The notes under the pieces were generated by a model that saw only the letters and a program-made list of their open reading frames with translations, did not search any database and had not been told where the DNA came from. From IMG/VR virus record IMGVR_UViG_3300048861_000257: 63,935 nt of DNA; one strand, 5' to 3'. Of this stretch, positions 836 to 61,384 are shown piece after piece; position 1 is the first letter of the stretch; each line of letters begins with the position of its first letter. The translations under genes and the position numbers were made by a program. This stretch comes from an uncultured virus (IMG/VR IMGVR_UViG_3300048861_000257) (taxonomy: Duplodnaviria; Heunggongvirae; Uroviricota; Caudoviricetes; Herelleviridae).

Positions 836-1510
836 TCATGACTGGGCAGACAGCCCCAGTGCGTGCTGAACGTCCGCGAGGGCCGCGTCGCGGGCGGGCT
901 GCGCTTCGTAGAGGCTGCGGTAGGAGTCCAGTTCCGTAGCGACGAGCAGCAGTGCGCGGCTCAGCGCATCGACACGCTGGTCGGTGGTCTGTCCAGCGAG
1001 GGCGTCGATCTCCTTGGCGATGTCGACGCCGTTGAGCTTGACGTGCTCCTCCCACTTCCGGAACAGCCCGTGGGTGTTCGGATTGCGGCCGATGCTCATC
1101 GAGAGCGCCAGCGCGGCGTCTACATCCCGGATGCGGTCCTCGGGGACGACGCCCATCTTGCGACGGAGGCGGGATGCGTCGACGGAGTGGACCTGCTCGC
1201 ACAGTGCCATGGCGGTCCCGGTGCCTTCCGGTGCCGGGAGCTCCACATGGGTGGGGCCGCTGCGCTTGCGGGTGGCTGTGGAGAGGTAGACCACCTGGGC
1301 GAAGCCCGATCGCGCGTTGAGGACGTTGTTCGAGACGATCACGGCTGGCCGGTTGCTCCAGATCTCGTTTCCCACGGCGGGAGTGCTGGGATCGGCGAGG
1401 ACCATCCAGATGTCGCCGCGGCGGTATCTGAACTCGGGTCCGGCGCCGGCCGCCGCCGCGCCGCGCATACGGCCTGCGATGTTCGCCGGGGTCGGTGCTG
1501 TGTCCGTCAT
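836..1510 (-). CDS. mazF: PemK/MazF-family toxin with C-terminal helical extension
   Basis: RRGDIW..GNEIWSNRPAVIVSNN..YLST..ALCEQVHSVDASRL motifs. Confidence 0.85.
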   Translation of the reverse strand: MTDTAPTPANIAGRMRGAAAAGAGPEFRYRRGDIWMVLADPSTPAVGNEIWSNRPAVIVSNNVLNARSGFAQVVYLSTATRKRSGPTHVELPAPEGTGTAMALCEQVHSVDASRLRRKMGVVPEDRIRDVDAALALSMSIGRNPNTHGLFRKWEEHVKLNGVDIAKEIDALAGQTTDQRVDALSRALLLVATELDSYRSLYEAQPARDAALADVQHALGLSAQS

Positions 1511-2874: not shown

Positions 2875-5800
2875 TCAGACCGTGGCCCCGACGAACGCCG
2901 AACCGTCGTCGACGGTGTCGTCGCTGCCGGTGTCGTCGCTGCTGGCGCTGCCGCCGAGCACCTCGGTGGCCTCGTCGGCGTCCAGGCGCGTGAGCGCGTC
3001 GGTGAAGCCGCTGAGCGCGGTGTCGAGGTCGTCGACCTGCTCCTCGGTGTCCTCACCGGCCGGTGTGGCCGCCATCAGGACGGCCAGGGCGGCCTCCACC
3101 TCGTCGTCCGACATGGTGTCGAGGTCGATGCCCTGCTGACGCAGCACGTTCAGCGCGTCGCGCTTCTCGAGCTGGGCCACCAGCATCTCGTAGTCCGCCT
3201 CGATGCGCGGGTTCTTCGCCGTGCCGTAGGAGAGGACGTACATGCTCTTCATCGCCCTGGTGAAGGCGACGTAGTACATGCGCTTGTTGTCCTCCGCCAT
3301 CTGTGGGTCGTACTTGTGCACGACCAGCACGTTGTCGAACTCGAGGCCCTTGGCGCCGTGGATGGTGCTGACGACCAGCTTCGCCTGCGCGTTGAGGTTC
3401 TTCTCCTTGCGCTCCCGGTTCTTCTGGTTCATCAGGGACTGCTTGATGCCGTTGTGACGGATCTCGTAGCCCAGCACGTTGTCCTGCAGTCGCTCGAAGA
3501 ACTCGTCCGCCGTGATCTGACCGGCCTGGTAGAGACCGAGCCAGCCGTTGATCTCGTTGGCACCCGCGATCCACCAGTCCGACGTCATCTTGGCGACGGC
3601 GCCGGCGGCAGCTGCGGCGTTCTTCGTGAGCTGATCCAGGTTGTCGTTGATGCCCTTGTGGATCGCGAAGGCAGCGTCCTTCGGGTCCAGCTGGCACACG
3701 TCGTTCCAGAACAGCTTGATGTACTGCGAGAACACCGTGGTGGGGTAGGTGCGGTCGCTGACGAGGTTGGCGACGTGCTCGCCCGGGAACAGCTCCTGGA
3801 GCTTCTTCTCCATGATGGAGACCTCGGCGCGCGAGTAGGCGAGGAACGCCACCTGCTCGCCCCGTCCCAGCCGCTCGGCGATCCATCGACGAGCGTCGAC
3901 CCCGATGAAGGAGCCGAGCTCCTCCCGGAACTTGGTGAGGTGCTGGAACAGCTTGTAGTTCACCGTCACCTTCTCCTGGAAGGAGGCGGCGGTGGGCACG
4001 GCGAGCGAGTTGGCCTGCAGCCGCAGCTGCGCCGCGGCGTTGGCCTCGATGTCAGCCAGGTGGACGTTCGCGAAATCCAGGATCTCCTGGTTACTCCGGT
4101 AGTTCGTCGTCAGCTGGTAGGTGGCGAAGACGCCGGACTCCTCGAGCGCGTTCAGCGCCTTGGGGTTCGACGCGCGGAACTCGTACAGCGTCTGCGAAGC
4201 GTCGCCGACGATGAACATGTTCTCGCGGTGCTTGGCAACGTACTTGAGCAGGTAGATGAACTCGAAGATCGAGTTGTCCTGCACCTCGTCGATGATGAGG
4301 TACTTCGACTGCACGTTCGCCGGCTCGACCATGCGGTCGATCTGCTGGTAGGCGATGACGATCTCCAGCTCGAGGCAGGTCTGGCCGATGCGGTCGAGCA
4401 TCTCCAGGACCTTGGCTTCGTACTTCTCGATGAACGCGTTGAGCAGCGTCGTCGCACCAGCGGTGAGCTTGTCGACGTCCATCATCACTCGACGGAACGC
4501 CCGTGCGACGTCGTCGCTCGGGTAGAAGATGTCGAGGCTGTTGAGGATCGTGTCGATCGACGACAGCTCGTGCTTCGGGTGGTTCAGCGAGTAGATGTCG
4601 TGGATCATCCGTGCGATGGTCATCGACCGCACACCCGGGTTCCGCTCCGTGATGTTGTCGGCGGCCGCGTTGGTGAAGGACAGCACCGCGATGTCGGACG
4701 CGTTCACGCCCTGCGCCTCGAGGTGCTGGATGCGCCCGAGGATCACGGTGGACTTGCCAGTGCCTGCACCCGCCTGCACGAGCGTCAGCGGCTCCGGGGT
4801 GGAGATCGCTGCGCGCTGCTGCGCCGAGAAGTGGGCCGGCATCGCCCAGGTGCTGTTGCCCGACGGCGGGGCGGAGAGCTGGCCCTTCATCGAGTTGAGG
4901 TGCTCCAGCGTGTGCGACATGAGCAGGTTCAGGTTCTGCTTGCTCAGGTCGTTTGCGACGTCGGGCGAGCACACGCCGTTGATGGTGGCGTGGATCGCAC
5001 GGTACGCCGCCAGCGAGACGTTGTAGGTCTCGAGGTAGCGCAGCTGCATCGCGAGGTGGTGCAGCGTCTGGTCGTCCGGTCGGCCGTTGGCGAACAGCTC
5101 CTGGATGTGGGTGGACAGCACGTCGGCGATACCGTCGCCGGCCCAGGCCTCCGCCAGGCGGCAGATTCGCTCGTGCACGTCGTAGTTCGACATCCACTCG
5201 GCGAGCTCGTCGACGTCCACGAAGACGCCTGCGCTTGCCTGGGCGCCGATGCGGGCCGTGGCGTCCTTAATGAACTCCTCGACGTCGTCGAGCGGCGCGT
5301 AGCTGTAGCGCATCATGGCGAACTCGTGGGTCGCGTCGAACGGCTGGCCGGCGCGCGGCGCCCACGGCGGCGAGGAGACAAGGCGCACTCGCTCGCTGGT
5401 GGATCCTTTGGCCACGACGAACAGGTCCATCCGGTAGAGGATGCTGAGGTCCTTGGAGATCTTGTCGCCGCTCTCGTCCTTCTGGAGCACGATCCCCTGG
5501 GGGGTGAGGTCCAGGAAGACGTCGAAGTCGTACTTCGTCGCATTGGCGGTGATCTCCAGCCGGTCGTTGGCGAACGGCACCGGGTAGGTGAGGCCGCGGG
5601 CCGCGTTGTGCTCGACCGAGTACTGGGCCAGCAGACCCATCGGGATGGTGAAGGTGGTGACGTTACTGCCGGAGCTCTTGCCCTTGGCGAGCACCGCCTT
5701 CGTGGACATGGTGGCCGAGCTGGAGCCCAGCGGGTATCGCCCGGGACGCACGGTCTGGTTCAGCAGGCCCACGTTGTTCCGGCCGTTGCCGGTGAGTTCG

Positions 5801-5883
5801 CTGCTGAAGTACTTCGGGTTGAGCGCCTTGGCGGCCGTGGGAGCCGAGGAAAGCGCGGTGAGGTCATCGAGCTGGATTGGCAT
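2875..5883 (-). CDS. UvrD/REP-like superfamily 1 helicase with long N-terminal extension (~1002 aa; start re-called at MPIQLDD)
   Basis: AGAGTGKST Walker A, LSFTNAAA, IIDEVQD, VGDASQTLYEFR, NYRSNQEI, STIHGAKGLEFD, YVAFTRA. Confidence 0.92.
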   Translation of the reverse strand: MPIQLDDLTALSSAPTAAKALNPKYFSSELTGNGRNNVGLLNQTVRPGRYPLGSSSATMSTKAVLAKGKSSGSNVTTFTIPMGLLAQYSVEHNAARGLTYPVPFANDRLEITANATKYDFDVFLDLTPQGIVLQKDESGDKISKDLSILYRMDLFVVAKGSTSERVRLVSSPPWAPRAGQPFDATHEFAMMRYSYAPLDDVEEFIKDATARIGAQASAGVFVDVDELAEWMSNYDVHERICRLAEAWAGDGIADVLSTHIQELFANGRPDDQTLHHLAMQLRYLETYNVSLAAYRAIHATINGVCSPDVANDLSKQNLNLLMSHTLEHLNSMKGQLSAPPSGNSTWAMPAHFSAQQRAAISTPEPLTLVQAGAGTGKSTVILGRIQHLEAQGVNASDIAVLSFTNAAADNITERNPGVRSMTIARMIHDIYSLNHPKHELSSIDTILNSLDIFYPSDDVARAFRRVMMDVDKLTAGATTLLNAFIEKYEAKVLEMLDRIGQTCLELEIVIAYQQIDRMVEPANVQSKYLIIDEVQDNSIFEFIYLLKYVAKHRENMFIVGDASQTLYEFRASNPKALNALEESGVFATYQLTTNYRSNQEILDFANVHLADIEANAAAQLRLQANSLAVPTAASFQEKVTVNYKLFQHLTKFREELGSFIGVDARRWIAERLGRGEQVAFLAYSRAEVSIMEKKLQELFPGEHVANLVSDRTYPTTVFSQYIKLFWNDVCQLDPKDAAFAIHKGINDNLDQLTKNAAAAAGAVAKMTSDWWIAGANEINGWLGLYQAGQITADEFFERLQDNVLGYEIRHNGIKQSLMNQKNRERKEKNLNAQAKLVVSTIHGAKGLEFDNVLVVHKYDPQMAEDNKRMYYVAFTRAMKSMYVLSYGTAKNPRIEADYEMLVAQLEKRDALNVLRQQGIDLDTMSDDEVEAALAVLMAATPAGEDTEEQVDDLDTALSGFTDALTRLDADEATEVLGGSASSDDTGSDDTVDDGSAFVGATV

Positions 5884-5971
5884 CGTGTGGCTTCTTCCTA
5901 GATTTTCGCCCGAGGGCGGGTGGCTTTGCGGGTGTGGGTGCGCGGGCGGCGAGCTGATGGCCTGCGGGTAG

Positions 5972-33383: not shown

Positions 33384-34552
33384 CAGAGCCCCAGTCGGGT
33401 GACCGCGTTTCCGCGCAAGGGATCGTGCTCGCGCCGGTAGACCTCGACCGTCGCGACGCTCTTGTGGTCGGTCTGGGGCATGATCTCGAACGGTGAGGCT
33501 CCGGCGCGGAGCGCCTGGGTGACGAAACCGGCGCGCAGGGAGTGGCCGCCGAAGCGGCTCGGGTTCATACCGACGGCGGCGAGGCGACGCTTGACGACGT
33601 CGTTGACGACCTCGCCGCTGACGGCATTGACGCCGATGTGACCGCCACGGCGGACCGGCCGGAACAAGCTGGCTCGCGGGTCCAGCCGAGCGAGCCACGG
33701 CGCAGACCCATGGCAGATGTGCTCGTCCATGCTCGCCTCGCGCAGCAGGCGCATCATGCTGCTGCGCGGAGCGGACGAGTCAACCTCGAGAACGCGGGCC
33801 CAGCGGAGAAACGCGCAGGGCGGGCAGGTCAGCGGGTTGTCGCCGAAAGGCAGTCCTTTCACCGAGCCGCGGCCTTCCTGGTCTGTCTTGGACGTAAGAA
33901 GCCGGACATGGAGTCCGTCCTCGTGGTGGACGCTCACGTCTCCGACGCGTCGACTCGCGAGCTCCGAGCGACGGAACGCGCCGGCGAACCCCATGACCAG
34001 GAGTGCTGCGTCGCGGTGGCCGATGATCCCTGCTGGGTAGGAGTTAATGTCGATCGCGCCCAGAACTCGTTTCAGGTCCGCCAGCAGAAGCGGCGCCATC
34101 CTCCGCGTCGGTCGGGCGTACCGTCGCCGGATGCCGGCGAGCGTGTCCTTCACCTCGCGGCGGGCGCCTGGTGCGACGTGGCCCGCACGTTCATGTCGGG
34201 CGTTGATCGAGGTGACCCACCGTGTGATCGTGCTCGGCGCGTAGGCGGGATCGCCTACGGCGTCCACGAGCGATGCGCGGTCCGTGATGTAGGCGGCCAC
34301 GGTGGAGCCGGACGCGGGCAGCGATACCTGGCCTCGCGTGTCGCACCAGCGTTCGAACGCGGCCCAGTCACTGTCGTATGCCCGCCGCGTGTTCTCGGCG
34401 CTGGCGTCTGCCTGATTCTGTGCGACACCGGCCAGGAGCTCTGCGGGGAGCGGCGCGCTCGTAGGTGCCGGGACGGTACTGCCGGCGTCGACCACCACGA
34501 CCGCGCGAGGGCGCGCGTCATGCTCATAGACGAGCGGATCGGTGACACCCAT
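33383..34552 (-). CDS. Tyrosine recombinase (Cre/Xer-like); start uncertain
   Basis: SAENTRRAYDSDW, RDAALL..FRRSEL, SKTDQ, HSLRAG, QTDH, VYRR catalytic residues. Confidence 0.92.
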   Translation of the reverse strand: MGVTDPLVYEHDARPRAVVVVDAGSTVPAPTSAPLPAELLAGVAQNQADASAENTRRAYDSDWAAFERWCDTRGQVSLPASGSTVAAYITDRASLVDAVGDPAYAPSTITRWVTSINARHERAGHVAPGARREVKDTLAGIRRRYARPTRRMAPLLLADLKRVLGAIDINSYPAGIIGHRDAALLVMGFAGAFRRSELASRRVGDVSVHHEDGLHVRLLTSKTDQEGRGSVKGLPFGDNPLTCPPCAFLRWARVLEVDSSAPRSSMMRLLREASMDEHICHGSAPWLARLDPRASLFRPVRRGGHIGVNAVSGEVVNDVVKRRLAAVGMNPSRFGGHSLRAGFVTQALRAGASPFEIMPQTDHKSVATVEVYRREHDPLRGNAVTRLGL

Positions 34553-41750: not shown

Positions 41751-42347
41751 TCAGGCGGCGTTGGCCTCCGCGGCGACGTGGATGATTTCGCGCTGATAGA
41801 TGCCTTCGAAGCTGTGGCGGAGGCCACGCTCGGGGGTGTCGATGATCAGCATGGGGCGCTGCGCCTCCTCGAGCTGGTTCATCACCGCTCCGGGGAGCGA
41901 CTCAGGGCTGAAGTCGATCATCTTCTTGCCGTCCGGAACCATCGCCGGGATGAGCACGACGTTGGCGTCGACCGAGCCGATCTGATCGAACGGGATCTGC
42001 TTGACGCCGACGGCGAGCGAGCGGAAGTGATCCGCGTCCTCCTCGATGAACGGGTTGTGCAGCGGGTCCCGCTCGGACATCCACTCGATGAACTGGTCGC
42101 TCTGACCGAAGTCCAGAGCTTCGTACGGCACGCCCTCACGCTCGAACGCTGCCGCGACGGCGAGGCCCGGGAGTGAGGAGAGGTCCACGAGGCCGCGCTG
42201 GACCTCCATGGCATCGATCAGCCGAGCGACGGTGTCGGTCAGCAGCAGGGTCGCCGCCTGCGGGTCGGCGAAGAACGCGATCGTGCGTTCTGTACGGACG
42301 TCCTCGGCGCTCTCGCTGGCGACGGCGTCCTCGTGATTGGTGGTCAT
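41751..42347 (-). CDS. Hypothetical protein
   Basis: AAGGAG RBS. Confidence 0.7.
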   Translation of the reverse strand: MTTNHEDAVASESAEDVRTERTIAFFADPQAATLLLTDTVARLIDAMEVQRGLVDLSSLPGLAVAAAFEREGVPYEALDFGQSDQFIEWMSERDPLHNPFIEEDADHFRSLAVGVKQIPFDQIGSVDANVVLIPAMVPDGKKMIDFSPESLPGAVMNQLEEAQRPMLIIDTPERGLRHSFEGIYQREIIHVAAEANAA

Positions 42348-53822: not shown

Positions 53823-53866
53823 GAAAAAAGAAACCCCCCGCCGCCCGAAGGCAGCGAGGGGTTTTG
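53823..53866. terminator. Bidirectional terminator
   Basis: AAAAAAG-AAACCCC...GGGGTTTT between convergent genes. Confidence 0.65.
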
Positions 53867-53877
53867 TCGTGGTCGGC

Positions 53878-54159
53878 TCAGAGGCCGGAGACGAGCTGGT
53901 AGGCGATCTCGATCTTGGTCTCGTTGGCTGCGCCGAGTCGAGGGATCACGATCGGCTCCGGGCGATCCTTCATCCAGATCTTGGTCTCGCCCTCGGCTTC
54001 TCCGAGCCGGTTCAGGGTCAGGGCGGTGATCGCCCCGACGTGGGTCGCTCGCTCGGGAGCTCCCTGCGCGTACTCGCTGGTCACGTGGAGCACGAGGATC
54101 CCGAGTCCGACGATCTTGGCGAGGCCGGCGCGGTCTTCGATGATGATGGGGTTGGACAC
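53878..54159 (-). CDS. Hypothetical protein
   Basis: AAGGAG RBS before GTG. Confidence 0.6.
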   Translation of the reverse strand: MSNPIIIEDRAGLAKIVGLGILVLHVTSEYAQGAPERATHVGAITALTLNRLGEAEGETKIWMKDRPEPIVIPRLGAANETKIEIAYQLVSGL

Positions 54160-54251: not shown

Positions 54252-55049
54252 TCACGGGGTGGTGGTGGCAACGATGTGTTGCAGGGAGGTCTCGACCTCG
54301 ATGAGCGAGTGGGCGACAGTCGAGTCGCCGATGTTCAGCAGCGCGTCGATGACCGGCCGCATCACGGGCAGGTACTTCGTGGCGAGGTGGTTGACGATCT
54401 GCTCCGACTCGCCGGCGGCGAGCTGGTGCCGAAGCGACCCGGCGTTGTCCATCAGGTCGGCCGCCTTCACCAGGAGCGCGTCGACCGGGACGCTGTCGAA
54501 CTCGACCGAGAGGTCGGTGAAGGTGCACGCCGCGACGGCGGCCAGGTCGATGATGTGCGCCTGGTATTGCTCGCGGGTGATGAACGGCTTGTTCGTGACG
54601 AGCGCGACAGCGCGGCCGACGCGGTCGCCGTAGGCGAGCTTCAACCACGCGATCGCGGCGTTCTGGATCGACTCGAGGTCGTCCTCGTCGACGCCGACAC
54701 CGATGCCCGCCGGGACGGCGTACTCGGAGAGGATCTCACGACCACAGTCCTCGACCACGTCGTGCAGCAGCGCCATCACGAGGCGAGGCGCGTCGGCGCC
54801 GCGGCCCCAGCGGATGAGGCGCAGCGCGTTGCGGAGCGGATGCTCGATGTACGGCACCCGCGGCAGGTCGCGCCGCACGCGGCGGGTCTGGTGCCGGTGC
54901 AGGAAGGTGGCGAGCATCGCGGCACTCGTGACCATGTCGCGACCCTCGGGCGAGATGATGATGCGGTCGGTCTCGCGGGCGAGCTCGTAGGCGAGCATCG
55001 CGGCGTCCATTTCCTTGAGCGGGACGCGGGGGAAGGTCGTGGGTGGCAT
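54252..55049 (-). CDS. RelA/SpoT-type HD-domain hydrolase (small alarmone hydrolase/Mesh1-like), start MPPTTFP
   Basis: HRHQTR, PYIEHP, ALLHDVVED, VKAADLMDN; no synthetase domain. Confidence 0.8.
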   Translation of the reverse strand: MPPTTFPRVPLKEMDAAMLAYELARETDRIIISPEGRDMVTSAAMLATFLHRHQTRRVRRDLPRVPYIEHPLRNALRLIRWGRGADAPRLVMALLHDVVEDCGREILSEYAVPAGIGVGVDEDDLESIQNAAIAWLKLAYGDRVGRAVALVTNKPFITREQYQAHIIDLAAVAACTFTDLSVEFDSVPVDALLVKAADLMDNAGSLRHQLAAGESEQIVNHLATKYLPVMRPVIDALLNIGDSTVAHSLIEVETSLQHIVATTTP

Positions 55050-55090: not shown

Positions 55091-55146
55091 GGGAGAAGAA
55101 GAGAGGTCGTGCGCCGTGGCATTTCTGCCCGCTTGCGCACGACCTC
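55091..55146 (-). terminator. Intrinsic terminator closing the RNA candidate
   Basis: GAGGTCGTGCGC (55103-55114) / GCGCACGACCTC (55135-55146) then TCTTCTTCT on minus strand. Confidence 0.75.
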
Positions 55147-55423
55147 GGCGATGGGTGATCAACCCTCCGTCCGTAGCGGTCCGGTCCCACCGAGCTGACA
55201 GGGTCAGCTTCTTGCAGATACCGGACCCTCACGACGCCCCTGTGCTCGAAGCCTTTGGGGGTGACGTGAGGCTCTTCCTCACTACGTGGCCCTTCGCCCG
55301 TGCCTGTTACCGGCCGCTTTGACGATCGACCCGGTCCTGCGGATGCAGATCCCGTTCAGAGAGCCCGCCTGGCGGGTGTCCCTCCTCTGTCGAGGTTATC
55401 CCGGAGACGGCTTCGCCGGCTCC
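55091..55423 (-). ncRNA. Structured ~330-nt non-coding RNA candidate, Ms1-like
   Basis: No credible ORF; many hairpins; 5' GCCGGCGAAGCC, internal GGTCGA and CGGTAAC, 3' ATCGCCGAGG running into a terminator; 5' CGGCGA can pair with 3' TCGCCG. Confidence 0.6.
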
Positions 55424-55499
55424 ACTTCTGAAAGAAGAAGCCCCCGCCGCCGATGAGGGCGACAGGGGTTCGATGGGGGAGTAGTAGTGAGGCTCGGCC

Positions 55500-56012
55500 T
55501 CAGAGTTTCAGCATCCGCCCGTCACATGCACGCACAAGCGATGGGGCCTCGCTGGTGACCATCGGGTGTTTCCAGTAGGGGTGCCCGCACTCGCTGCATT
55601 CGACCTCCCCGCTTACCCGGAAGCACTCTTCTTCCCACCACTCGGTCGCAGGCGAGGGGGTTGTCGTTCTGACATGGACGATGATGTCCGCCTCGAGCTT
55701 CTTGGCAAGGCGGAACTGGTAGCGCTCTGGACGGATCTCCTCGATCGACGAGACACCCCTCGTGCCGACTCCGTCGATTGTGAGGAGATCGAACTCGGTG
55801 AGCGGCAGCTCAGTCACCTCGGCGATGTCCTCGGGCACGCGGTTGAAGCCGCGTGTGTCGACGTCGAAGCCGATTGCTGGGTCGGTCTCGTCGAGGCTGA
55901 CCCGGAGCCGGCTGTACTCGACCAGGTCGATCCTGGTGATGCGCTTCTCGCCGAACACCGGAAGGGAGAGCATCGTTCCCGGGCGGAGGGTGAGGCTGTT
56001 GACGATTCTCAT
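55500..56012 (-). CDS. Hypothetical protein with C-terminal Cys/His motif
   Basis: CSECGHPYWKHP..C; GAGGAG RBS. Confidence 0.7.
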   Translation of the reverse strand: MRIVNSLTLRPGTMLSLPVFGEKRITRIDLVEYSRLRVSLDETDPAIGFDVDTRGFNRVPEDIAEVTELPLTEFDLLTIDGVGTRGVSSIEEIRPERYQFRLAKKLEADIIVHVRTTTPSPATEWWEEECFRVSGEVECSECGHPYWKHPMVTSEAPSLVRACDGRMLKL

Positions 56013-56027: not shown

Positions 56028-56267
56028 TCAGATGCGGGTTTCGTCGACGAGCAGGATGAGGCTGTCGCCGGGGTTCTGGTCGCCGGCGCGCTTCCACCTG
56101 TAGCCCTCGACGGGCATGGCGAAGAGCCAGATACCGCGGTCGGTCAGCCGCCATAGGCCGAATTCGGCAGCGGAGCCGCCGCGGTAGATGCCCGGCTTCA
56201 GCGCCCGGGGGCGCGCTGGCGCTGCGGTTGCTGCTGCGGTGGAGTGGTTGAGGGTCTGCGTCGACAT
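56028..56267 (-). CDS. Hypothetical protein
   Basis: AAGGAG RBS. Confidence 0.6.
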   Translation of the reverse strand: MSTQTLNHSTAAATAAPARPRALKPGIYRGGSAAEFGLWRLTDRGIWLFAMPVEGYRWKRAGDQNPGDSLILLVDETRI

Positions 56268-56611
56268 GACGGGCTCCTTCGGTCGTGCGCGGAGGAGTCC
56301 TCTGCGTCGACGGGGTACCCGAGGCGGCTGTGCCGCCGCGCTGCTTCTCGTTGCCGCCGCAGCTCGTGCTCGAGGTCGAAGCGGGTGATCGCGGAGCCGT
56401 CGTCGTGGCGGTTCGTCGACGCGTGCCGGGCGCGGTCGCAGCGCGGCGTTTCAGCCCCGCGAAGAGGGGACAGCGTGACACGTAAATCCGTTCATTTTCC
56501 CTCATAGACGTGCATTTTTGATAGCCGATTCCGGTAGGCTTGAGGTCGCGAGTCCGGTCACGACATGCCCCGTCGTTGACCGGACTCGTTCCACAGATGA
56601 GGGGAGAGCAG

Positions 56612-59600
56612 ATGAGTGACCTGAGACTCACTGGTTCGAGCAAGTCCACGAAGGGACGCACCGCGCGCCGAGGCGTTCGGGCACTTCTGTCGGGAGCTCT
56701 CGCTCTCGGACTCGTGATGACCGGCGCTGGGATGGCGCAGGCCGCCGGTGGTGTCGGTGGCGGCGGGGTCGGTGGTGGCGGTGGCGGCTCCGGCGACGGA
56801 GGCCCCACCCGGTATGCGCTCTACACGGGCGACTACCTCGACGCCAGCATGAACCCGGTGCAGGGGTGGGGACAGGCCTCGATCGACTACTTCGCCTCGG
56901 CGATGGAGCAGGATGCCCGCTGGGCAGACAGCGTCGGCGGCGACCGTACGGGCATCAACACTGCGTGCACGCAGGCGATCAACGATGCCATCGCGCGCAG
57001 CAACGGCACCGCGACCATGGCTCGCGTGATCCAGGTTGGCGCTGCATACAACTACAGCGGTGGCGTCCCCTACTTCGGCTGGGGCGGCAACCAGGGCGAA
57101 ATGGCCTCCTGGTACGACGGCGAGACCGCCGCGGGATCCTGGCAGCCGTACTTGCCCTTCTACTCGGCCCAGACCCTCGGCGCCGTCCACGATGCATTCA
57201 TCGGGAGCATCCCCTCCATCCCGCGCATCGTCTGCCTCGCGCTGAACCAGACCGAGATGCCGAACTACGACCTCACGCTCAGCACCGACAAGGCGGCGAC
57301 GTTCCCGACCGCGGGCACCACGACGCCGGTGAGCGACCGCATCAACGCATCGGCGTCCAACGGCATCCGCGAGAACATCAACGCGACGGTGTCGCTGCGC
57401 TGGGCCGGCGTCGAAGGCAACGCGAAGGGCGTCGCCAAGAACGTCACGATCGCGAACCAGGGGACTACCGGCTCGCCGGCGTTCACGCCGAGCGACTTCG
57501 GCTGGGCCTCCTGGCCCTCGGGCAAGTTCTGGTTCGACGTCTCCGTGGCGAAGCAGGGCAAGATGACTGCCGCCGTCTCGCATGGCGGACAGAACGACGC
57601 CCGCGAGAACTGGACGGCTGCGACCACGCCGCCGCGGAAGATCCTCACCAGCGGTGCGGGCGACCAGCTCGGCGACACCGAGGTCCTCGCCTCGGGCATG
57701 AGCTACAACGCCGAGATCACGGCGCGCACGAACGGCTACTCCAGCTCGATGACGATCAACGACACGGTCGGCACCAGCCAGGTCTACATCGGCAGCGCGA
57801 CGGCCGACGACACCTCGGCGGCGTACATCAACGATCCCAGCGGCAACCGCGTCGCGGGCGCGACGATCCGCATCGACCGCTCGGTCACGGGTCAGGTGAC
57901 GGTGTCAGGCACCGTTACGGGTATCCCGGACACGTTCCAGGCTGAGGAGTACACGCTCGTCGTGCCTACCTATGTCCTGCCGACGAAGAAGGACTACACG
58001 ATCAGCGACAACTCGAACGTCTGCTACACCGCGGCTCAGACCGGCTGCCTGGCCGGCAACTCCAAGGTCACGCGCAAGGTGACCGCGACGCCGGACAAGG
58101 TGTGGGTCCTCGACCCGAACGGCGGCCTCACCACCGCCGACCCCGGTCAGACGAACCAGGTCGGCTCCGACAATCGCGTCTTCCTTCCCGGTGACGCGGT
58201 GTCGGCCGTGGTCAACGGTCGCATCCCGGCCAACCTCGCCGAGAACCTCTCCACCTACAAGCTCATCGACGACTGGTCGAAGGCGGCGGAGTACGTGGAC
58301 TTCTCCGACGCGTCGCAGGTCGCGGTCTACGCCGAGACGAGCCCGGGCTCCGGGAGCTACGTCAGCGTCACCGGCCAGTTCGACATCAAGATCAACGGAT
58401 CGGTCACGACCGCGACCGCGAAGGCATCGTTCCTCTCGGCCACGAAGGGCCTGGCGGTGGACCGGAAGACCAAGCTCATCATCAGCGGCAACTTCCGGAC
58501 CGACTTCGCCACGAAGGGTCAAACCGTCGCCCTGACGAACGCGGGCAGCGAGGTGTGGAACAACGAGACCATCGCGACCAACGAGCCGCCGGTCTACACG
58601 TGGACGCCGAATCCGAACAAGCAGGTGCTCGGCTCCGCGGACGAGTCCGGTGACAAGGCGCACTCCGACATCAACGGCACTTCGGTGTGGCCGGGGCAGA
58701 AGCTCGAGTACTCGGTCGGCATCGACCTGCGCGTCCCCGCGGGCACCGCACGCGGCGTGAAGAGCCTGGCCGTGGAGGACCAGTACGACCCGTACCTGAT
58801 CCCGGACAAGTCCTCGATCGAGTTCTGGGACGCTCGCGACGTCTCGAACCCGAAGCCGATCGCGCGCAGCGACTACAAGCTCGTGGTCGACTCCGCGGAC
58901 CACCGGTTCACGGCGACGTTCACCGACGACTGGATCGCGAAGAACGTCTCCACCACCGGCGCCAACAGCCAGTGGCTGACGCAGGGCTGGCTCACGATGC
59001 GCTTCACGGGAACCGTGAGCCCGGACATCCTGCAGGGCAGCACCGTGGTGAACCAGGCGTTCCAGATCATCAACGGCGCCCGCACGGGCAGCGACGTGCC
59101 GTCGGTGAAGATCCCCGTGCAGAACCCGGACAAGGAGTCGCTGAGCTCGAACCAGGACAACATCGACGGCAAGACCGTCGTGAAGGGCGACGTCGTGGTC
59201 TACCGGCTGACCCTCGACGCGAACCCCGCGCGGGAACAGCTGGCGTACAACGTGCACAAGCTGGGCATGGTCGACGACTACGACGACGAGTACCTCTCGC
59301 TGGACGCCTCGGCGATCAAGGTGACCGAGAAGACCACCGGCCTCGACGTGACCGACAAGTTCAACGTGCAGGTCAAGGACGGCATCGCCTATGTCTACGC
59401 CAAGACGATCGACACCCCCGACGTCTACGGCGGACCCGACATCAAGGGCGACCCGCAGCCGGCTGACCTCGCCGCGTTCGACAAGGCACCGATCCGCCCG
59501 CTGGAGGACCCGATCATCGACCAGAGCCTGCTCGGGAAGCAGTACTGGATCACGCTGCCGACCGTGGTGACGAAGGAGAAGAACGGCCACACCATCGAGA

Positions 59601-61384
59601 ACCAGGCCGTCCAGAACATCCAGAACACCCGGATGGGGACGAAGATCGTCTCGAACCCGCTGGCCGAGATCGACCCGACCAAGGACGTCACGATCTCCGA
59701 CGCCGATGGCGAGAAGTCTGTCGACGCCGCCGAGATCCGGATGTGGAAGTCGTTCAACTACCGTCTGAACAGCTCCGAGATCCCGGCGAACCGCGCGTAC
59801 GCGGCCACGCAGTGGTCGCTCACTGACGCGTTCGACAAGGCGCACGACCAGTACTCGGGCATCTGGGCCGTCTACGCGAACACCGATGTCTACGACGGCG
59901 CCGAGCTCGCGTTCAAGAAGGGCGACCTGATCGAGAACTCGACCGGGTCCGGGCCCGACGCTGGCAAGGGCCTCTTCGCGGTGTCCTTCGACGAGGTCAC
60001 GAACACGCTGACGGCCACCCCGACGCAGGCGTACCTCGACCTCATCGCGAAGCGCGCCGACCTGTCGAACGGGTTCGCGGTCTACGCGAAGATGGTGCGC
60101 GTCGCGCCGGCGGAGCGGATCGAGAACACGGTGCAGGAGAGCTACAACACCGTGCCGCGCTCCTCGAACACGGTCTGGACCGTGACGCCGGAGTTCCCTG
60201 AGCTCGCGATCCAGAAGTACACGCTCAGCGAGGGAACGACCGACGGTGTGCACCGCGACGTGAAAAGCGCCTACGCGGTGACGAAGGATCAACTGGCCGA
60301 CGGCGCGCTGCCGAAGGATGCCCCGGAGGGAACGAAGCCGGTGCAGCAGGGAGTCGAGGTCGGCATCCGCTTCAGCAACGTCGGCGACGTGCCGCTGAAG
60401 GACATCGACCTGGTGGACTTCACGCAGGACGGCTTCCACGGTCAGCTCGAAGACCTGCTGTGCGCGGTTCCTGCACCCTCCGCTTCCGCTTCCGGAATCG
60501 GTGTGATCAAGGACGGCACCACGGTGAAGCCGGACGAGAACGGCATGATCTGGGTCCAGCCCTCCACCATCACCGAACTCGCTATGGCGCAGCAGGTCGA
60601 CTGCCGCGGCACGCTGCGCGGGATGGCACCCGGCATGACCCACGGAGACACCGTCGCCGTGACGGGCTCCTCCGTGTTCACGGACACCGCCGTGAAAGCC
60701 CAGGACGTCTGGTTCGCCAAGGCCGCATCGACCCCTGGCATCGAGGTCGTGAAGTACACCCTCAGCGAAGGCCGGACCGCGGGTGACCGCAACGACCCGG
60801 CGGCACCGTACGTGATCACGGCCAACCAGGCGGAGCACGGCGTGCAGGTCGCGTTCGACGTGACGAACACCGGGGACGAGGCACTCACGGGGCTGAAGTT
60901 CGCTGACGCCACGAAGGACGGCACGATGGGCACTGTCACGGACGTGAAGTGGCTGGACCCGGTCGTCAAGGCTCCGGTCATCACTCTCGGCGCTGGGACG
61001 ACGTACGCGAAGGCGGCCGACGGCACGGTCATGATCGGCGCTACGAAGTACACCGAGCACCCGGTCAGCGAGCTGAAGGATCTCGCCCCCGGCCAGCGAG
61101 TGCTGCTGGTGGCCACGCTGACCGGCCTCAAGCCGGGGACGAGCCACAGCGACACGGCGACGGTCTCGGCCACGGCGCTCTACTCGGGCGCGCCGGTCAA
61201 GGATACGGACCCGTGGAACGCGACGCTCCCCGCCGTGGTGCTCGGCGGCGCGGTGACCGGTTCGCCGGTCTCGCGCGGCGACGGCAAGGGCGACCTGCTC
61301 GGCGGCGCCGGCCTGCTGCTCACCGCGGCGAGCCTCGTCGGTCTGATCCTCCGCCGGCGCATCCGGCGGCTGAACGCTTCGTAG
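56612..61384 (+). CDS. Large cell-surface adhesin with antigen I/II (SspB)-like repeat domains and C-terminal membrane anchor (~1590 aa)
   Basis: Signal peptide (AQA), repeated PxK...NIDGKTV..G..Y, MVDDYD units, AVTG + TM + RRRIRR tail. Confidence 0.85.
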   Translation: MSDLRLTGSSKSTKGRTARRGVRALLSGALALGLVMTGAGMAQAAGGVGGGGVGGGGGGSGDGGPTRYALYTGDYLDASMNPVQGWGQASIDYFASAMEQDARWADSVGGDRTGINTACTQAINDAIARSNGTATMARVIQVGAAYNYSGGVPYFGWGGNQGEMASWYDGETAAGSWQPYLPFYSAQTLGAVHDAFIGSIPSIPRIVCLALNQTEMPNYDLTLSTDKAATFPTAGTTTPVSDRINASASNGIRENINATVSLRWAGVEGNAKGVAKNVTIANQGTTGSPAFTPSDFGWASWPSGKFWFDVSVAKQGKMTAAVSHGGQNDARENWTAATTPPRKILTSGAGDQLGDTEVLASGMSYNAEITARTNGYSSSMTINDTVGTSQVYIGSATADDTSAAYINDPSGNRVAGATIRIDRSVTGQVTVSGTVTGIPDTFQAEEYTLVVPTYVLPTKKDYTISDNSNVCYTAAQTGCLAGNSKVTRKVTATPDKVWVLDPNGGLTTADPGQTNQVGSDNRVFLPGDAVSAVVNGRIPANLAENLSTYKLIDDWSKAAEYVDFSDASQVAVYAETSPGSGSYVSVTGQFDIKINGSVTTATAKASFLSATKGLAVDRKTKLIISGNFRTDFATKGQTVALTNAGSEVWNNETIATNEPPVYTWTPNPNKQVLGSADESGDKAHSDINGTSVWPGQKLEYSVGIDLRVPAGTARGVKSLAVEDQYDPYLIPDKSSIEFWDARDVSNPKPIARSDYKLVVDSADHRFTATFTDDWIAKNVSTTGANSQWLTQGWLTMRFTGTVSPDILQGSTVVNQAFQIINGARTGSDVPSVKIPVQNPDKESLSSNQDNIDGKTVVKGDVVVYRLTLDANPAREQLAYNVHKLGMVDDYDDEYLSLDASAIKVTEKTTGLDVTDKFNVQVKDGIAYVYAKTIDTPDVYGGPDIKGDPQPADLAAFDKAPIRPLEDPIIDQSLLGKQYWITLPTVVTKEKNGHTIENQAVQNIQNTRMGTKIVSNPLAEIDPTKDVTISDADGEKSVDAAEIRMWKSFNYRLNSSEIPANRAYAATQWSLTDAFDKAHDQYSGIWAVYANTDVYDGAELAFKKGDLIENSTGSGPDAGKGLFAVSFDEVTNTLTATPTQAYLDLIAKRADLSNGFAVYAKMVRVAPAERIENTVQESYNTVPRSSNTVWTVTPEFPELAIQKYTLSEGTTDGVHRDVKSAYAVTKDQLADGALPKDAPEGTKPVQQGVEVGIRFSNVGDVPLKDIDLVDFTQDGFHGQLEDLLCAVPAPSASASGIGVIKDGTTVKPDENGMIWVQPSTITELAMAQQVDCRGTLRGMAPGMTHGDTVAVTGSSVFTDTAVKAQDVWFAKAASTPGIEVVKYTLSEGRTAGDRNDPAAPYVITANQAEHGVQVAFDVTNTGDEALTGLKFADATKDGTMGTVTDVKWLDPVVKAPVITLGAGTTYAKAADGTVMIGATKYTEHPVSELKDLAPGQRVLLVATLTGLKPGTSHSDTATVSATALYSGAPVKDTDPWNATLPAVVLGGAVTGSPVSRGDGKGDLLGGAGLLLTAASLVGLILRRRIRRLNAS

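Follow-up and report, generated by a model that had tools for sequence, protein, structure and literature searches.

What is specified by some 330 nucleotides with no evident gene, lying on the minus strand just ahead of a gene that resembles an alarmone hydrolase? The stretch analyzed here (63,935 nt, hereafter the window) had been described, in a preliminary description made from the sequence, as a mobile element encoding an RNA related to Ms1, paired with the hydrolase in a module that would act on the transcription machinery of the host. We addressed in turn whether this interval is a structured RNA, on what kind of element it lies, to which RNA family it belongs, and how it relates to the hydrolase gene.

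A structured, noncoding RNA candidate flanked by terminator-like hairpins

Sequence inspection and folding showed that the interval at 55091-55423 on the minus strand is noncoding and has a terminator-like hairpin on either side (Table 1). The features first reported for it (about 330 nt without an ORF, dense pairing, a position between terminator-like hairpins) are all present in the sequence. The minimum-energy fold of the RNA reached -170.4 kcal/mol, compared with -138.1 +/- 6.2 in shuffled sequences (n = 100; z -5.24), none of which folded as well. This fold contains the helices CCTC/GAGG and CCCGC/GCGGG, a helix CCTCACG..CGTGAGG enclosing CCCC/GGGG, and GGTCCGGT/ACCGGACC enclosing AGCTGAC/GTCAGCT; within the middle domain, the GUGAGG/CCUCAC hairpin competes with CCUCACG..CGUGAGG. 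When folded as RNA, the opposite strand reached -155.4 (z -3.05). Under DNA folding parameters the strands tied (-82.8 vs -82.9), and both exceeded their shuffles (z -3.8 and -5.0). As for the long-range closure that had been suggested between CGGCGA (55418-55413) and TCGCCG (55151-55146), both segments exist, but a G-to-A change in the Microbacterium homologue described below is compensated within the local 5' hairpin and not distally.

Neither codon-position GC, nor the spread of substitutions, nor a reading frame shared between homologues gave any coding signal in the RNA interval. GC is flat across the three codon positions (0.67/0.63/0.65; GC3 of window genes, 0.8-0.9), and substitutions between the RNA and its Microbacterium homologue are distributed 29/35/37 over these positions. 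A coding reading of the RNA was therefore discarded, codon periodicity and a shared frame both being absent, as was a mini-ORF starting at a GTG directly before P1, which is not conserved among copies. The hydrolase reading frame is open as far as 55355, and its homologues begin at the ATG at 55049. A tRNA/tmRNA scan of the whole window found none. We found no promoter between T1 and P1, the sole sigma-70-like match sitting within the upstream gene, and the RNA ends given here are those deduced from the sequence. We conclude that 55091-55423 is a structured, noncoding and strand-specific RNA candidate.

Table 1. Features of the RNA and of its transcription unit, in window coordinates.
Feature	Position	Strand	Description
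Degenerate P1-P2 leader copy	56275..56340	-	precedes a 79-aa gene (56028-56267)
Upstream 170-aa gene	55500..56012	-	no function assigned; homologue in the Microbacterium element
T1, terminator-like hairpin	55441..55468	-	11 pairs; 3' of the 170-aa gene; tail CTTCTTCTTT reaching ~55431
P1, 5' hairpin	55403..55423	-	GGAG-C-CGGC-GAA-GCCG-U-CUCC; first half of the leader module
P2	55357..55389	-	purine-rich/pyrimidine-rich arms CAGAG/CUCUG with inserted hairpin CCCGC-CAG-GCGGG; second half of the leader module
Conserved core, hairpins Pb and Pc	55288..55354	-	near-invariant blocks GAACGGGAUCUGC and AGGCACGGGCGA
Pb	within 55288..55354	-	CGG..UCUGC/GCAGG..CCG
Pc	within 55288..55354	-	GGUC..UCGUC..GCC/GGC..GGCGA..GGCC
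Variable middle domain	55178..55283	-	AAGAG-loop hairpin (GUGAGG/CCUCAC) and long hairpin GGUCCGGU..ACCGGACC
Hairpin with conserved loop UGAUC(A)	55146..55173	-	from the fold and the two-homologue consensus
T2, terminator-like hairpin of the RNA itself	55091..55145	-	AGGUCGUGCGC...GCGCACGACCU and pyrimidine tail UCUUCUUCUCCC
HD_4 / Mesh1-SpoT-type small alarmone hydrolase-like gene, 265 aa	54252..55049	-	Shine-Dalgarno GAGAGG
93-aa gene (orf93)	53878..54159	-	closing gene of the unit; no function assigned
T3, terminator-like hairpin	53831..53864	-	T1 sequence type; closes the unit

T1 and T3 mark the limits of the unit, and the sequence of T1 is kept in Leifsonia (L056) and in G198 (L059). The hairpin of T2 proper occupies 55103-55145 and is followed by TCTTCTTCTCCC; from T2 to the hydrolase ATG there are 53 nt.

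The RNA lies on a pGKT2-like plasmid backbone

For 23 ORFs of the window, homologues lie in collinear order on G002:C8 and/or G001:C6. The gene order (DHH/RecJ-like protein, P4 primase, a protein of ~1100-1300 aa, DEAD/SNF2 helicase, AAA ATPases and a large helicase) is that of pGKT2, a 182-kb circular plasmid of Gordonia sp. KTR9, and the same backbone order is found in related large actinobacterial plasmids; the adhesin-proximal cargo of pGKT2-like plasmids differs from that of the window. A backbone marker occurred sporadically, in 2 of 401 family genomes. These comparisons bear out the earlier view of the locus as part of a mobile element, and they support assigning the window, by gene content and order, to the backbone of a pGKT2-like large actinobacterial plasmid. 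To our knowledge, few structured RNAs have come from large plasmids of Actinobacteria.

Homologues, covariation and expression of the RNA

The RNA has a homologue on a plasmid-like Microbacterium contig, which spans query positions 19-408 of 451. At ~70% identity and across two genera-level lineages, the two still have conserved blocks and compensated helices in common. The two-homologue consensus holds 58 pairs, of which 11 are kept through two-sided changes and 7 through G-U-type single changes, and it folds better in the sense orientation (-69.1 kcal/mol) than in the antisense (-53.5). The preliminary description had called for covariation analysis; compensatory changes are present at 11 of 58 consensus pairs, all from one sequence pair, as the searches yielded just two full-length copies that are independent, along with a truncated third. 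The Microbacterium copy, whose middle domain is far shorter, folds by itself no better than its shuffles (z -0.89).

The RNA is rare. Searches matched 7 of 401 family genomes, with more than ~45 nt in G002 only, and 24 of 401 Microbacterium genomes, at full length in G002 and G538 only and as a truncated 3' half in G792; the remaining 21 Microbacterium matches covered 24-59 nt, and nhmmer did not extend them. Among relatives of the Leifsonia genome, 4 of 201 matched and none at full length. A covariance model of the 5' half (R1) scored 163.8 bits at the conserved core and at most 12.6 bits at other window sites; in island-bearing genomes it found leader-module matches alone (four of five genomes, 20-34 bits). 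By blastn the RNA had no match in the phage and plasmid collections, PLSDB included, where the one plasmid match fell in the hydrolase coding region. A pattern scan with the core blocks returned 2 viral and 46 metagenome stretches in contexts that appear coding-type, none of which nhmmer extended, and the five matches of a P1-motif scan of viral contigs were at chance level. An exact 13-nt complement in the gene at 41754-42347 was considered as an antisense target and set aside as probably a chance match: its flanks diverge, and the same 12-mer is frequent in the coding-type metagenome matches.

In a soil metatranscriptome of a separate study, a single 220-nt contig is 100% identical to the RNA and lies wholly within it (55151-55370), and the same run contained nothing from 1.2 kb of its flanks. 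The RNA is probably expressed in soil, the contig being a single one of low depth (2.5x) and RNA libraries being able to include DNA.

No kinship to Ms1 or 6S RNA is supported

Ms1 (MTS2823 / scr3559) is, according to PMC4191392 and PMC9130861, a chromosomal RNA adjoining a HAD-IB hydrolase gene; its fold is a long hairpin, in the center of which a conserved bubble binds RNA polymerase core. PMC9130861 gives as its synteny rule a HAD-IB hydrolase together with an oxidoreductase or glycosidase. Our RNA shares with Ms1, as outlined in PMC4191392, a length of ~300 nt, an actinobacterial origin, an intrinsic terminator, short hairpins near either end and a lack of coding potential; it differs in being plasmid-borne, in lying beside an HD hydrolase and in forming 8-9 local hairpins. 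Length and terminator fit an Ms1-type unit, a single gene of ~300 nt whose RNA builds up in stationary phase; a sigma-A-type promoter, also expected of such a unit, was not found between T1 and P1.

We compared the window and Microbacterium RNAs with six HAD-IB-flanking spacers from five genomes (Streptomyces, Kribbella, Gordonia, Arthrobacter and Cellulomonas), within which the exact Ms1 ends were not delimited, and blastn (word 7, E <= 1) gave no match; as published, the Gordonia HAD-IB gene adjoins 6C RNA. This missing similarity is weak evidence, because Ms1 RNAs of distant genera are not alignable and, according to PMC9130861, those from different genera have no detectable mutual sequence similarity. 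The four motifs put forward in the preliminary description as Ms1-like do occur in the window in the order given, but they are not collinear in the HAD-IB spacers. A block conserved between the Arthrobacter and Cellulomonas spacers was rejected as an RNA, since its reverse strand reads as a small lysine/arginine-rich ORF.

Neighborhood and fold also differ. The RNA has no HAD-IB or oxidoreductase neighbor, its neighbors being the HD_4-like gene, the 170-aa and 93-aa genes and an adhesin gene. By a crude measure, the minimum-energy folds of the two homologues have 9 and 8 hairpin loops, a nesting depth of 30 and 23, and few pairs spanning more than half the length (9/115 and 7/86), compared with a nesting depth of 49-70 and up to 36 long-range pairs in the Gordonia and Streptomyces spacers. 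The two-homologue consensus fold consists of local hairpins with no large central bubble. At gathering score, Rfam had no match anywhere in the window, 6S included; at E <= 10, each copy gave four sub-threshold matches to eukaryotic or viral families, none common to both. Rfam also had no hit on the Gordonia spacer expected to hold Ms1, so this search is silent on Ms1. In the hosts themselves, the HAD-IB matches of Leifsonia and Microbacterium fell under the cut-off and lay in tight operons, and 6C RNA was not found in either genome. Since the spacers gave no sequence match, the HAD-IB/oxidoreductase synteny is missing and the fold is not a rod with a bubble, the proposed kinship to Ms1 is not supported, and we take the window RNA not to be homologous to either Ms1 or 6S RNA.

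A leader module shared with plasmid genes

The first 70 nt of the RNA recur in the leaders of neighboring plasmid genes, which suggests a control device common to the plasmid family. This P1-P2 module was found in 11 copies in 6 genomes, preceding genes or RNAs; in related elements it stands in mRNA leaders just before ribosome sites. P1, a short stem closed by a purine loop of 3 nt, recurs on one strand only; across module copies, 82.8% of its cells are paired and three pairs are compensated, the CGGC/GCCG pair becoming CAGC/GCUG in Microbacterium copies. In the window, the degenerate copy marks the start of an operon divergent from the adhesin gene, and ahead of the hydrolase gene the module occurs just once, at the RNA 5' end. 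In both Leifsonia and Microbacterium, a short leader is immediately upstream of the hydrolase gene, and Microbacterium also carries an ORF-less mini unit of leader plus terminator (L055 1302-1420).

The hydrolase neighbor and its pairing with the RNA

The earlier identification of the neighbor as alarmone-hydrolase-like was supported. Alone, the protein scores under the cut-offs of Pfam (17.3 vs 27.2 bits) and NCBIfam (29.7 vs 499 bits), while PF13328 is found in many of its homologues. A profile of 23 homologues had PDB matches among orthologues of Mesh1 and the hydrolase domains of Rel/SpoT (E 1e-9 to 1e-7). H51, H70, H96-D97, E100-D101, D198 and N202 are invariant in these 23 and align with the corresponding blocks of PDB chain 3nqw; metal-binding and catalytic roles are assigned to the H, HD, ED, D and N positions of small alarmone hydrolases. 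This invariant H..H..HD..ED..D..N series supports a predicted hydrolase-like function of the Mesh1/HDDC3 and SpoT HD type. Mesh1-type hydrolases are known from toxin-antitoxin and phage-defense contexts; among the window neighbors we found no toxic alarmone synthetase partner beside this gene.

The idea of a conserved RNA-plus-hydrolase module did not survive comparison. The window has the RNA ahead of the hydrolase gene, Microbacterium has it ~1.3 kb downstream, and Leifsonia lacks it; at no other of 54 hydrolase loci examined was it found within 4 kb. After the Microbacterium RNA come T2, another terminator and then an unrelated gene of 224 aa. In the window, the predicted fold of a read-through transcript (z -4.59) pairs both the Shine-Dalgarno sequence and the AUG of the hydrolase with T2-flanking sequences, through helices that are short and in which the pyrimidine tail may meet the purine-rich ribosome site by chance.

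Discussion

The reading we prefer, to which we give roughly even chances, is that of a previously undescribed, rare, plasmid-borne structured RNA of ~330 nt that is terminated at T2 and, in this plasmid, also gates the hydrolase operon. From 5' to 3' it would comprise the P1-P2 leader, a two-hairpin core, a variable middle, the UGAUC(A)-loop hairpin and T2. Most transcripts would end at T2 and yield a stable, compact RNA, whose conserved core may bind a plasmid or host factor. In the window, where the cassette separates the leader module from the hydrolase gene, the hydrolase/orf93 unit would be left with no evident promoter or leader itself and would be expressed solely through T2 read-through; in the read-through RNA, the T2 flanks would pair with the hydrolase ribosome site and start codon. 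Dependence on read-through and masking of this site together suggest that the RNA also gates the alarmone-hydrolase operon. We count in favor of this reading that the location of the cassette relative to the hydrolase gene differs between the two plasmids.

We were concerned that the whole 330 nt could instead be a purely cis-acting leader without any role in trans, attenuating the hydrolase operon in the manner of a riboswitch or in dependence on a protein. The placement of the only leader module before the gene, the proximity of T2 to its ATG, the masked ribosome site and the short leaders directly preceding the Leifsonia and Microbacterium genes would all suit such a device, as would alternative hairpins of an X-X'-X type in both homologues (GUGAGG/CCUCAC/CGUGAGG in the window, CGAG/CUCGG/CCGAG in Microbacterium). 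This is nevertheless rather unlikely, as the Microbacterium RNA lies downstream of the hydrolase and ahead of two terminators and an unrelated gene, and as Rfam riboswitch families, the ykkC type included, had no match at E <= 10 in either copy. It is improbable that the element works at the DNA level, as folded single-stranded DNA in transfer or replication (a single-strand origin, a primase/primosome site or a transfer-associated site). A large plasmid replicon encoding a P4-type primase and helicases would provide the setting, DNA-parameter folds exceed shuffles on both strands, and P1, with its short stem and purine loop, recurs on one strand only; against this, the strand preference appears under RNA parameters only and hinges on G-U pairs, a terminator-like hairpin stands at the end, the 5' module is located in mRNA leaders, and the metatranscriptome contig points to RNA.

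It is quite improbable, too, that the interval is what is left of a decaying gene cassette (leader, dead ORF and terminator) and serves no function itself. The cassette occupies the site where related plasmids carry small genes, and the ORF-less mini unit, the truncated copy in G792 and the rarity of the RNA would agree with decay, but the conserved blocks and compensated helices, the extreme fold stability and the lack of any trace of codon periodicity or a shared frame argue against it. It is highly unlikely that the RNA is a plasmid-made decoy titrating a host or plasmid factor, which in its boldest form would be an Ms1/6S analogue binding host RNA polymerase in Microbacteriaceae. If true, an RNA expressed from the leader that the plasmid's own early genes use would be coupled to an alarmone hydrolase, and the plasmid on entry would reset the polymerase pool and the stringent response. 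Least credible is the proposal that the RNA binds host RNA polymerase, whether as a homologue of Ms1/6S or as their functional analogue. Its outline does resemble that of Ms1 (PMC4191392), the absent similarity weighs little, and Microbacteriaceae are absent from the taxa with predicted Ms1 in Table 4 of PMC9130861, their genera being unmentioned in the available part of its supplement, so that a plasmid copy would be nonredundant there; the spacer comparison that included the 6C-adjoining Gordonia locus, the neighborhood, the shallow local fold and the missing Rfam 6S match all speak against it.

A plasmid leader RNA with its own terminator has a known counterpart in the prgQ leader of pCF10, which ends at the IRS1 terminator. 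Both are structured plasmid RNAs of several hundred nucleotides, associated with an aggregation-substance-type adhesin, in which read-through of the terminator opens, or in our case may open, downstream genes. In contrast to prgQ, with which it is unrelated in sequence, the window RNA has no identified antisense partner, belongs to another host phylum and also occurs detached from the hydrolase gene, in Microbacterium.

These results correct the record in that the RNA is not an Ms1 relative. A leader-based control device of this plasmid family has not been described previously, and in the window plasmid the RNA would be the only visible gate to the Mesh1-type alarmone hydrolase. Were it to control the hydrolase, or to work in trans, it would reveal the way in which such plasmids time their interference with host stress signaling.

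A strand-specific, structured RNA precedes the hydrolase gene

A 450-nt intergenic span on the minus strand, running from the stop of a 170-aa gene (55500) to the ATG of the hydrolase gene (55049), contains the RNA under study and two terminator-like hairpins, T1 and T2. All helices named in the preliminary description were recovered in the minimum-energy fold of the RNA, which at -170.4 kcal/mol is well below shuffled sequences (-138.1 +/- 6.2; z -5.24, with 0/100 shuffles equal). The complementary strand folded to -155.4 kcal/mol (z -3.05). With DNA parameters the two strands tied (-82.8 vs -82.9), indicating that the strand preference is a property of RNA and depends on G-U pairs.

The description of this stretch as non-coding also held, as its codon-position GC is flat (0.67/0.63/0.65) compared with a GC3 of 0.8-0.9 in the window genes. 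Substitutions relative to the copy found in Microbacterium are spread evenly over codon positions (29/35/37). The hydrolase reading frame is open as far as 55355, yet 23 homologues start at the methionine equivalent to 55049. A coding reading of the RNA was rejected after translated comparison with the Microbacterium copy, which changes frame and runs through stops.

Coordinates of the features discussed (window unless a locus, L, or a genome contig, G:C, is named)
Feature	Location	Strand	Remarks
RNA (flagged stretch)	55091-55423	-	between T1 and the hydrolase gene ribosome site
T1, terminator-like hairpin	55441-55468	-	11 pairs, tail CTTCTTCTTT; shared sequence
T2, second strong hairpin	55103-55145	-	3' end inside the flagged stretch, then UCUUCUUCUCCC
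T3, terminator-like hairpin	53831-53864	-	shared sequence
Other shared-sequence terminator hairpins	L056 1457-1478; L059 1561-1582
Stretch with ribosome site GAGAGG before the ATG (55049)	55090-55050	-	41 nt between the RNA and the ATG
Hydrolase gene	54252-55049	-	265 aa
orf93	53878-54159	-	93 aa
Degenerate leader copy	~56275-56340	-	ahead of first gene of operon divergent from adhesin gene
Leader copies	L055 1302-1386, 1443-1527; L056 1506-1590; L057 1499-1583; L058 1504-1588; L061 842-926, 1497-1581; L002 3903-3987
Leader copy	L059 1460-1544	-
Microbacterium mini unit	L055 1302-1420 (= L002 5978-6096)		leader + terminator
Small membrane-protein-like ORF	L002 ~5745-5950	opposite to mini unit
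3'-half copy of RNA, G792:C23	L122 1202-1292, 1496-1646
Metatranscriptome contig	55151-55370		220 nt
13-nt complement of GAACGGGAUCUGC	41988-42000	+	exact
Gene containing the complement	41754-42347	-	198-aa plasmid protein
Adhesin gene	56540-61381	+	1614 aa
Tyrosine recombinase gene	33386-34552
MazF/PemK-like toxin domain gene	839-1510	-	224 aa
Collinear regions	G002:C8 66.7-130 kb; G001:C6 68-110 kb
Block conserved between HAD-IB spacers	L149 ~2316-2413; L150 ~1214-1311

The RNA is conserved in a few related elements

We reached relatives through the hydrolase protein, for which the protein collection contains 245 relatives with E <= 0.001; a profile built from 23 of its relatives identified 54 loci in species-representative genomes. 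When the intergenic region was used as query against these loci, three matched: two near-identical Microbacterium strains (L002 and L003), aligned over query positions 19-408 of 451, and a Leifsonia locus (L001), where the alignment was limited to positions 23-123. Searches with the RNA matched 7/401 family genomes, 24/401 Microbacterium genomes and 4/201 relatives of the Leifsonia genome, and beyond the Microbacterium genome G002 they yielded just two substantial copies, one full-length and identical (G538) and one of the 3' half (G792). There was no match in phage or plasmid collections, and scanning viral and metagenome contigs by pattern gave chance matches alone, which on inspection of their contexts looked like part of ordinary coding-type sequence. 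We conclude that the RNA is real but rare. The G792 copy consists of the 3' half alone, is 97% identical to the G002 copy and lies ~200 nt downstream of a tRNA-Ser(CGA) gene; it resembles the border of an element fragment that has integrated or decayed.

The window and Microbacterium copies are ~70% identical where alignable, and RNAalifold gave them 58 consensus pairs. Of these, 11/58 are kept by two-sided changes and 7/58 by single G-C/G-U/A-U changes. The consensus energy of the two homologues was -69.1 kcal/mol in the sense and -53.5 in the antisense direction. Caution is due on two counts: this is one independent sequence pair, and the Microbacterium copy alone was no more stable than its shuffles (z -0.89). 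From 5' to 3', the conserved parts are hairpin P1; the purine/pyrimidine hairpin P2 with an inserted hairpin; the core hairpins Pb and Pc, with which the near-invariant blocks GAACGGGAUCUGC and AGGCACGGGCGA are associated; an AAGAG-loop hairpin that differs at three consecutive pairs of its stem; and, after a variable middle that is ~75 nt longer in the window than in Microbacterium, a hairpin with a UGAUC(A) loop and the terminator. The window also contains an exact 13-nt complement of GAACGGGAUCUGC within the gene of a plasmid protein. Flanking sequence does not extend the pairing of that mRNA with the block, and the word is frequent in chance, coding-type-looking matches elsewhere; the complement is probably due to chance.

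The 5' end is a leader module shared with genes

The first 70 nt of the RNA recur elsewhere: the pattern GCCRGCRRAGCYGYCTCCGG occurs eight times in five related genomes, and its reversed control occurs 0 times. We collected 11 leader copies, itemised by source as follows: window, two; Microbacterium G002, five; Leifsonia, one; G109, one; G198, one; G149, two. Two of the copies, one from the window and the leader of the Microbacterium hydrolase gene, are degenerate and fall off the strict pattern. The module is ~70 nt long; in related Microbacteriaceae elements each genome has one to three strict copies, and every one is on the coding strand. Its layout is P1, GGG, a short spacer and the purine-rich/pyrimidine-rich P2, which in most copies is followed by the ribosome site and ATG of a small gene. 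In 82.8% of 99 cells P1 is paired, and three of its pairs are compensated (e.g., CGGC/GCCG to CAGC/GCUG), a count of modest significance as 28/500 shuffles reach it.

The module stands directly ahead of the hydrolase gene in Leifsonia and Microbacterium. Both in Microbacterium and in the window, where the copy is degenerate, it precedes the first gene of the operon divergent from the adhesin gene. It also heads two ORF-less Microbacterium units: a mini unit consisting of the leader and a terminator and, immediately downstream, the long RNA. Because these ORF-less units carry a gene-type leader, the long RNA is built like one of the element's gene cassettes with the ORF replaced by a structured RNA. 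The mini unit is closely preceded by a small ORF of membrane-protein-like type, encoded on the opposite strand.

A promoter search for the RNA found none; the sole sigma-70-like match lies inside the upstream gene. P1 begins 17 nt from the end of T1. The terminator-like hairpins share sequence across genera, and not shape alone (CCCCUGUCGCCCUCAYCGGCGGCGGGGG and relatives), and they accompany the leader module at a variable spacing of 17-29 nt, behavior not usual in plain terminators.

The RNA lies in the cargo region of a plasmid-type element

Twenty-three window ORFs have collinear homologues on G002:C8 (Microbacterium, 199.6 kb) and/or G001:C6 (Leifsonia, 203.6 kb), in the order antigen I/II-type adhesin, hydrolase, RarA-like ATPase, RecJ-like DHH protein, tyrosine recombinase, P4-type primase, 1131-aa protein and SNF2 helicase. 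The window primase is 51-54% identical to the primases of a Streptomyces plasmid and of pGKT2 (182-kb circular, Gordonia sp. KTR9), whose annotated gene order parallels that of the window, and a backbone marker protein is present in 2/401 family genomes. Given this collinearity, the pGKT2 parallel and the sporadic marker, the window belongs to a large plasmid-type element of sporadic distribution, and the claim that the RNA is encoded by a mobile element stands. The RNA occupies a variable cargo region, with the adhesin on one side and the conserved backbone on the other. The results thus show a structured, non-coding element on a plasmid that is conserved and strand-specific, ends in a terminator and has a leader module in common with genes.

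Collinearity among the three sequences exceeds 45 kb, the order paralleling pGKT2. All three regions are on contigs of 189-204 kb (the window's own is 189,443 nt), and these may be complete plasmids belonging to a single family. The tyrosine recombinase lies within the conserved backbone rather than at an end of it; the adhesin is of the antigen I/II / aggregation-substance type with SspB-type isopeptide domains; and the window also encodes a protein with a MazF/PemK-like toxin domain.

The RNA and the hydrolase gene are not a conserved pair

The 265-aa protein scored below cut-off against both Pfam HD_4 (E 0.004, 17.3 bits; cut-off 27.2) and NCBIfam spoT_relA (2e-7, 29.7 bits; cut-off 499), and PF13328 is present in many of its homologues. 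The family profile matched Mesh1 orthologues, HDDC3 and Rel/SpoT hydrolase domains in the PDB (E 1e-9 to 1e-7), and the alignment takes in the HD/ED block as well as the K..D..DN block. Invariant in the family are H51, H70, H96-D97, E100-D101, D198 and N202, which we take to be the metal-binding and catalytic positions. No partner of RelA/SpoT synthetase type adjoins the gene in the window. The most fitting name for the protein is orphan small alarmone hydrolase-like enzyme.

The proposed pairing of RNA and hydrolase as a module did not survive comparison. The order in the window is leader module, RNA, hydrolase gene. The Microbacterium hydrolase gene comes with a short leader of its own, and the RNA there lies ~1.3 kb downstream of the gene, separated from it by the mini unit and a gene of 219 aa. 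After that RNA come T2, another terminator of T1 type and an unrelated gene encoding 224 aa. The Leifsonia hydrolase locus lacks the RNA body, and the other loci among the 54 (Arthrobacter, Kribbella, Brevibacterium, Streptomyces and others) have nothing similar to the RNA within 4 kb.

Kinship of the RNA with Ms1 is not supported

Passages of PMC4191392 and PMC9130861 describe Ms1 as a chromosomal RNA of ~300 nt with its own promoter and terminator, which forms a long hairpin around a conserved central bubble, binds RNA polymerase core, adjoins a HAD-IB hydrolase gene and is weakly conserved in sequence between genera; no Microbacteriaceae are among the examined entries of Table 4 of PMC9130861 (2022). 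Rfam gave no match on the RNA. It also gave no Ms1 match on a Gordonia spacer expected to contain Ms1, where it found 6C RNA beside the HAD-IB gene, and Rfam is thus uninformative about Ms1. We therefore compared both RNA copies with six spacers flanking the best HAD-IB gene in five genomes (Streptomyces, Kribbella, Gordonia, Arthrobacter and a Cellulomonas MAG). Short-word blastn detected no similarity, and the four motifs given as Ms1-like in the preliminary description were not found in the same order and orientation in these spacers. By nesting depth and long-span pairs, a crude measure, the Gordonia and Streptomyces spacers (depth 49-70, up to 36 pairs spanning more than half the length) fold differently from the window copy (depth 30, 9/115 such pairs, nine hairpin loops) and the Microbacterium copy (depth 23, 7/86, eight loops). 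Kinship with Ms1 thus fails on synteny, architecture and sequence, and an Ms1-like decoy is a very improbable reading of the RNA.

The only block conserved between the HAD-IB spacers of Arthrobacter and the Cellulomonas MAG (87% over 98 nt) reads on the reverse strand as a small lysine/arginine-rich ORF, presumably resembling the small ribosomal protein bS22; conservation of Ms1-syntenic spacers need not, therefore, stem from RNA.

Proposed working and rival explanations

One soil DNA run, possibly the one from which the window derives, matched the 1.5 kb around the RNA almost entirely, and one soil metatranscriptome from another study matched ~1/8 of it, as a single, 100% identical contig entirely within the RNA; the same run had no sequence on the neighboring genes of this region. 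This is the pattern expected of a stable small RNA and a weak hint of one, being one contig at depth 2.5 from an RNA library that may contain DNA.

We propose that most transcripts would stop at T2 to give a compact RNA, whose conserved core would engage some partner. T1 and T3 flank the hydrolase/orf93 unit, which has neither leader nor promoter of its own in the window and so would be reached through T2 read-through. In the predicted read-through fold (z -4.59, much of it owed to T2 itself), CAUCG immediately 5' of T2 pairs with the CGAUG containing the start codon, and on the 3' side of T2 the pyrimidine tail pairs with GAGAGG, the Shine-Dalgarno sequence. Both homologues retain a segment able to pair up- or downstream (GUGAGG/CCUCAC/CGUGAGG in the window, CGAG/CUCGG/CCGAG in Microbacterium), which would suit a switch.

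These predicted pairings would also fit a purely cis-acting leader, a less likely rival reading that has against it the separation of RNA and hydrolase gene in Microbacterium. Another rival, a single-stranded-DNA element of plasmid transfer or replication, is improbable; it would fit the plasmid setting but has against it a strand preference seen only with RNA parameters. The last, a dead cassette, is also improbable; it would fit the rarity of the RNA and has against it the pairs kept by two-sided changes.

Neither the RNA nor the leader module is included in Rfam 15, and titles and abstract openings in the literature on Ms1/6S on plasmids or prophages, and on pGKT2 and non-coding RNA, held nothing pertinent. 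The RNA is not a new Ms1 member; it is a new, narrowly distributed family of a general kind already known, the plasmid-borne regulatory or leader RNA. Were it to bind RNA polymerase or control the alarmone hydrolase, its importance would be much greater.
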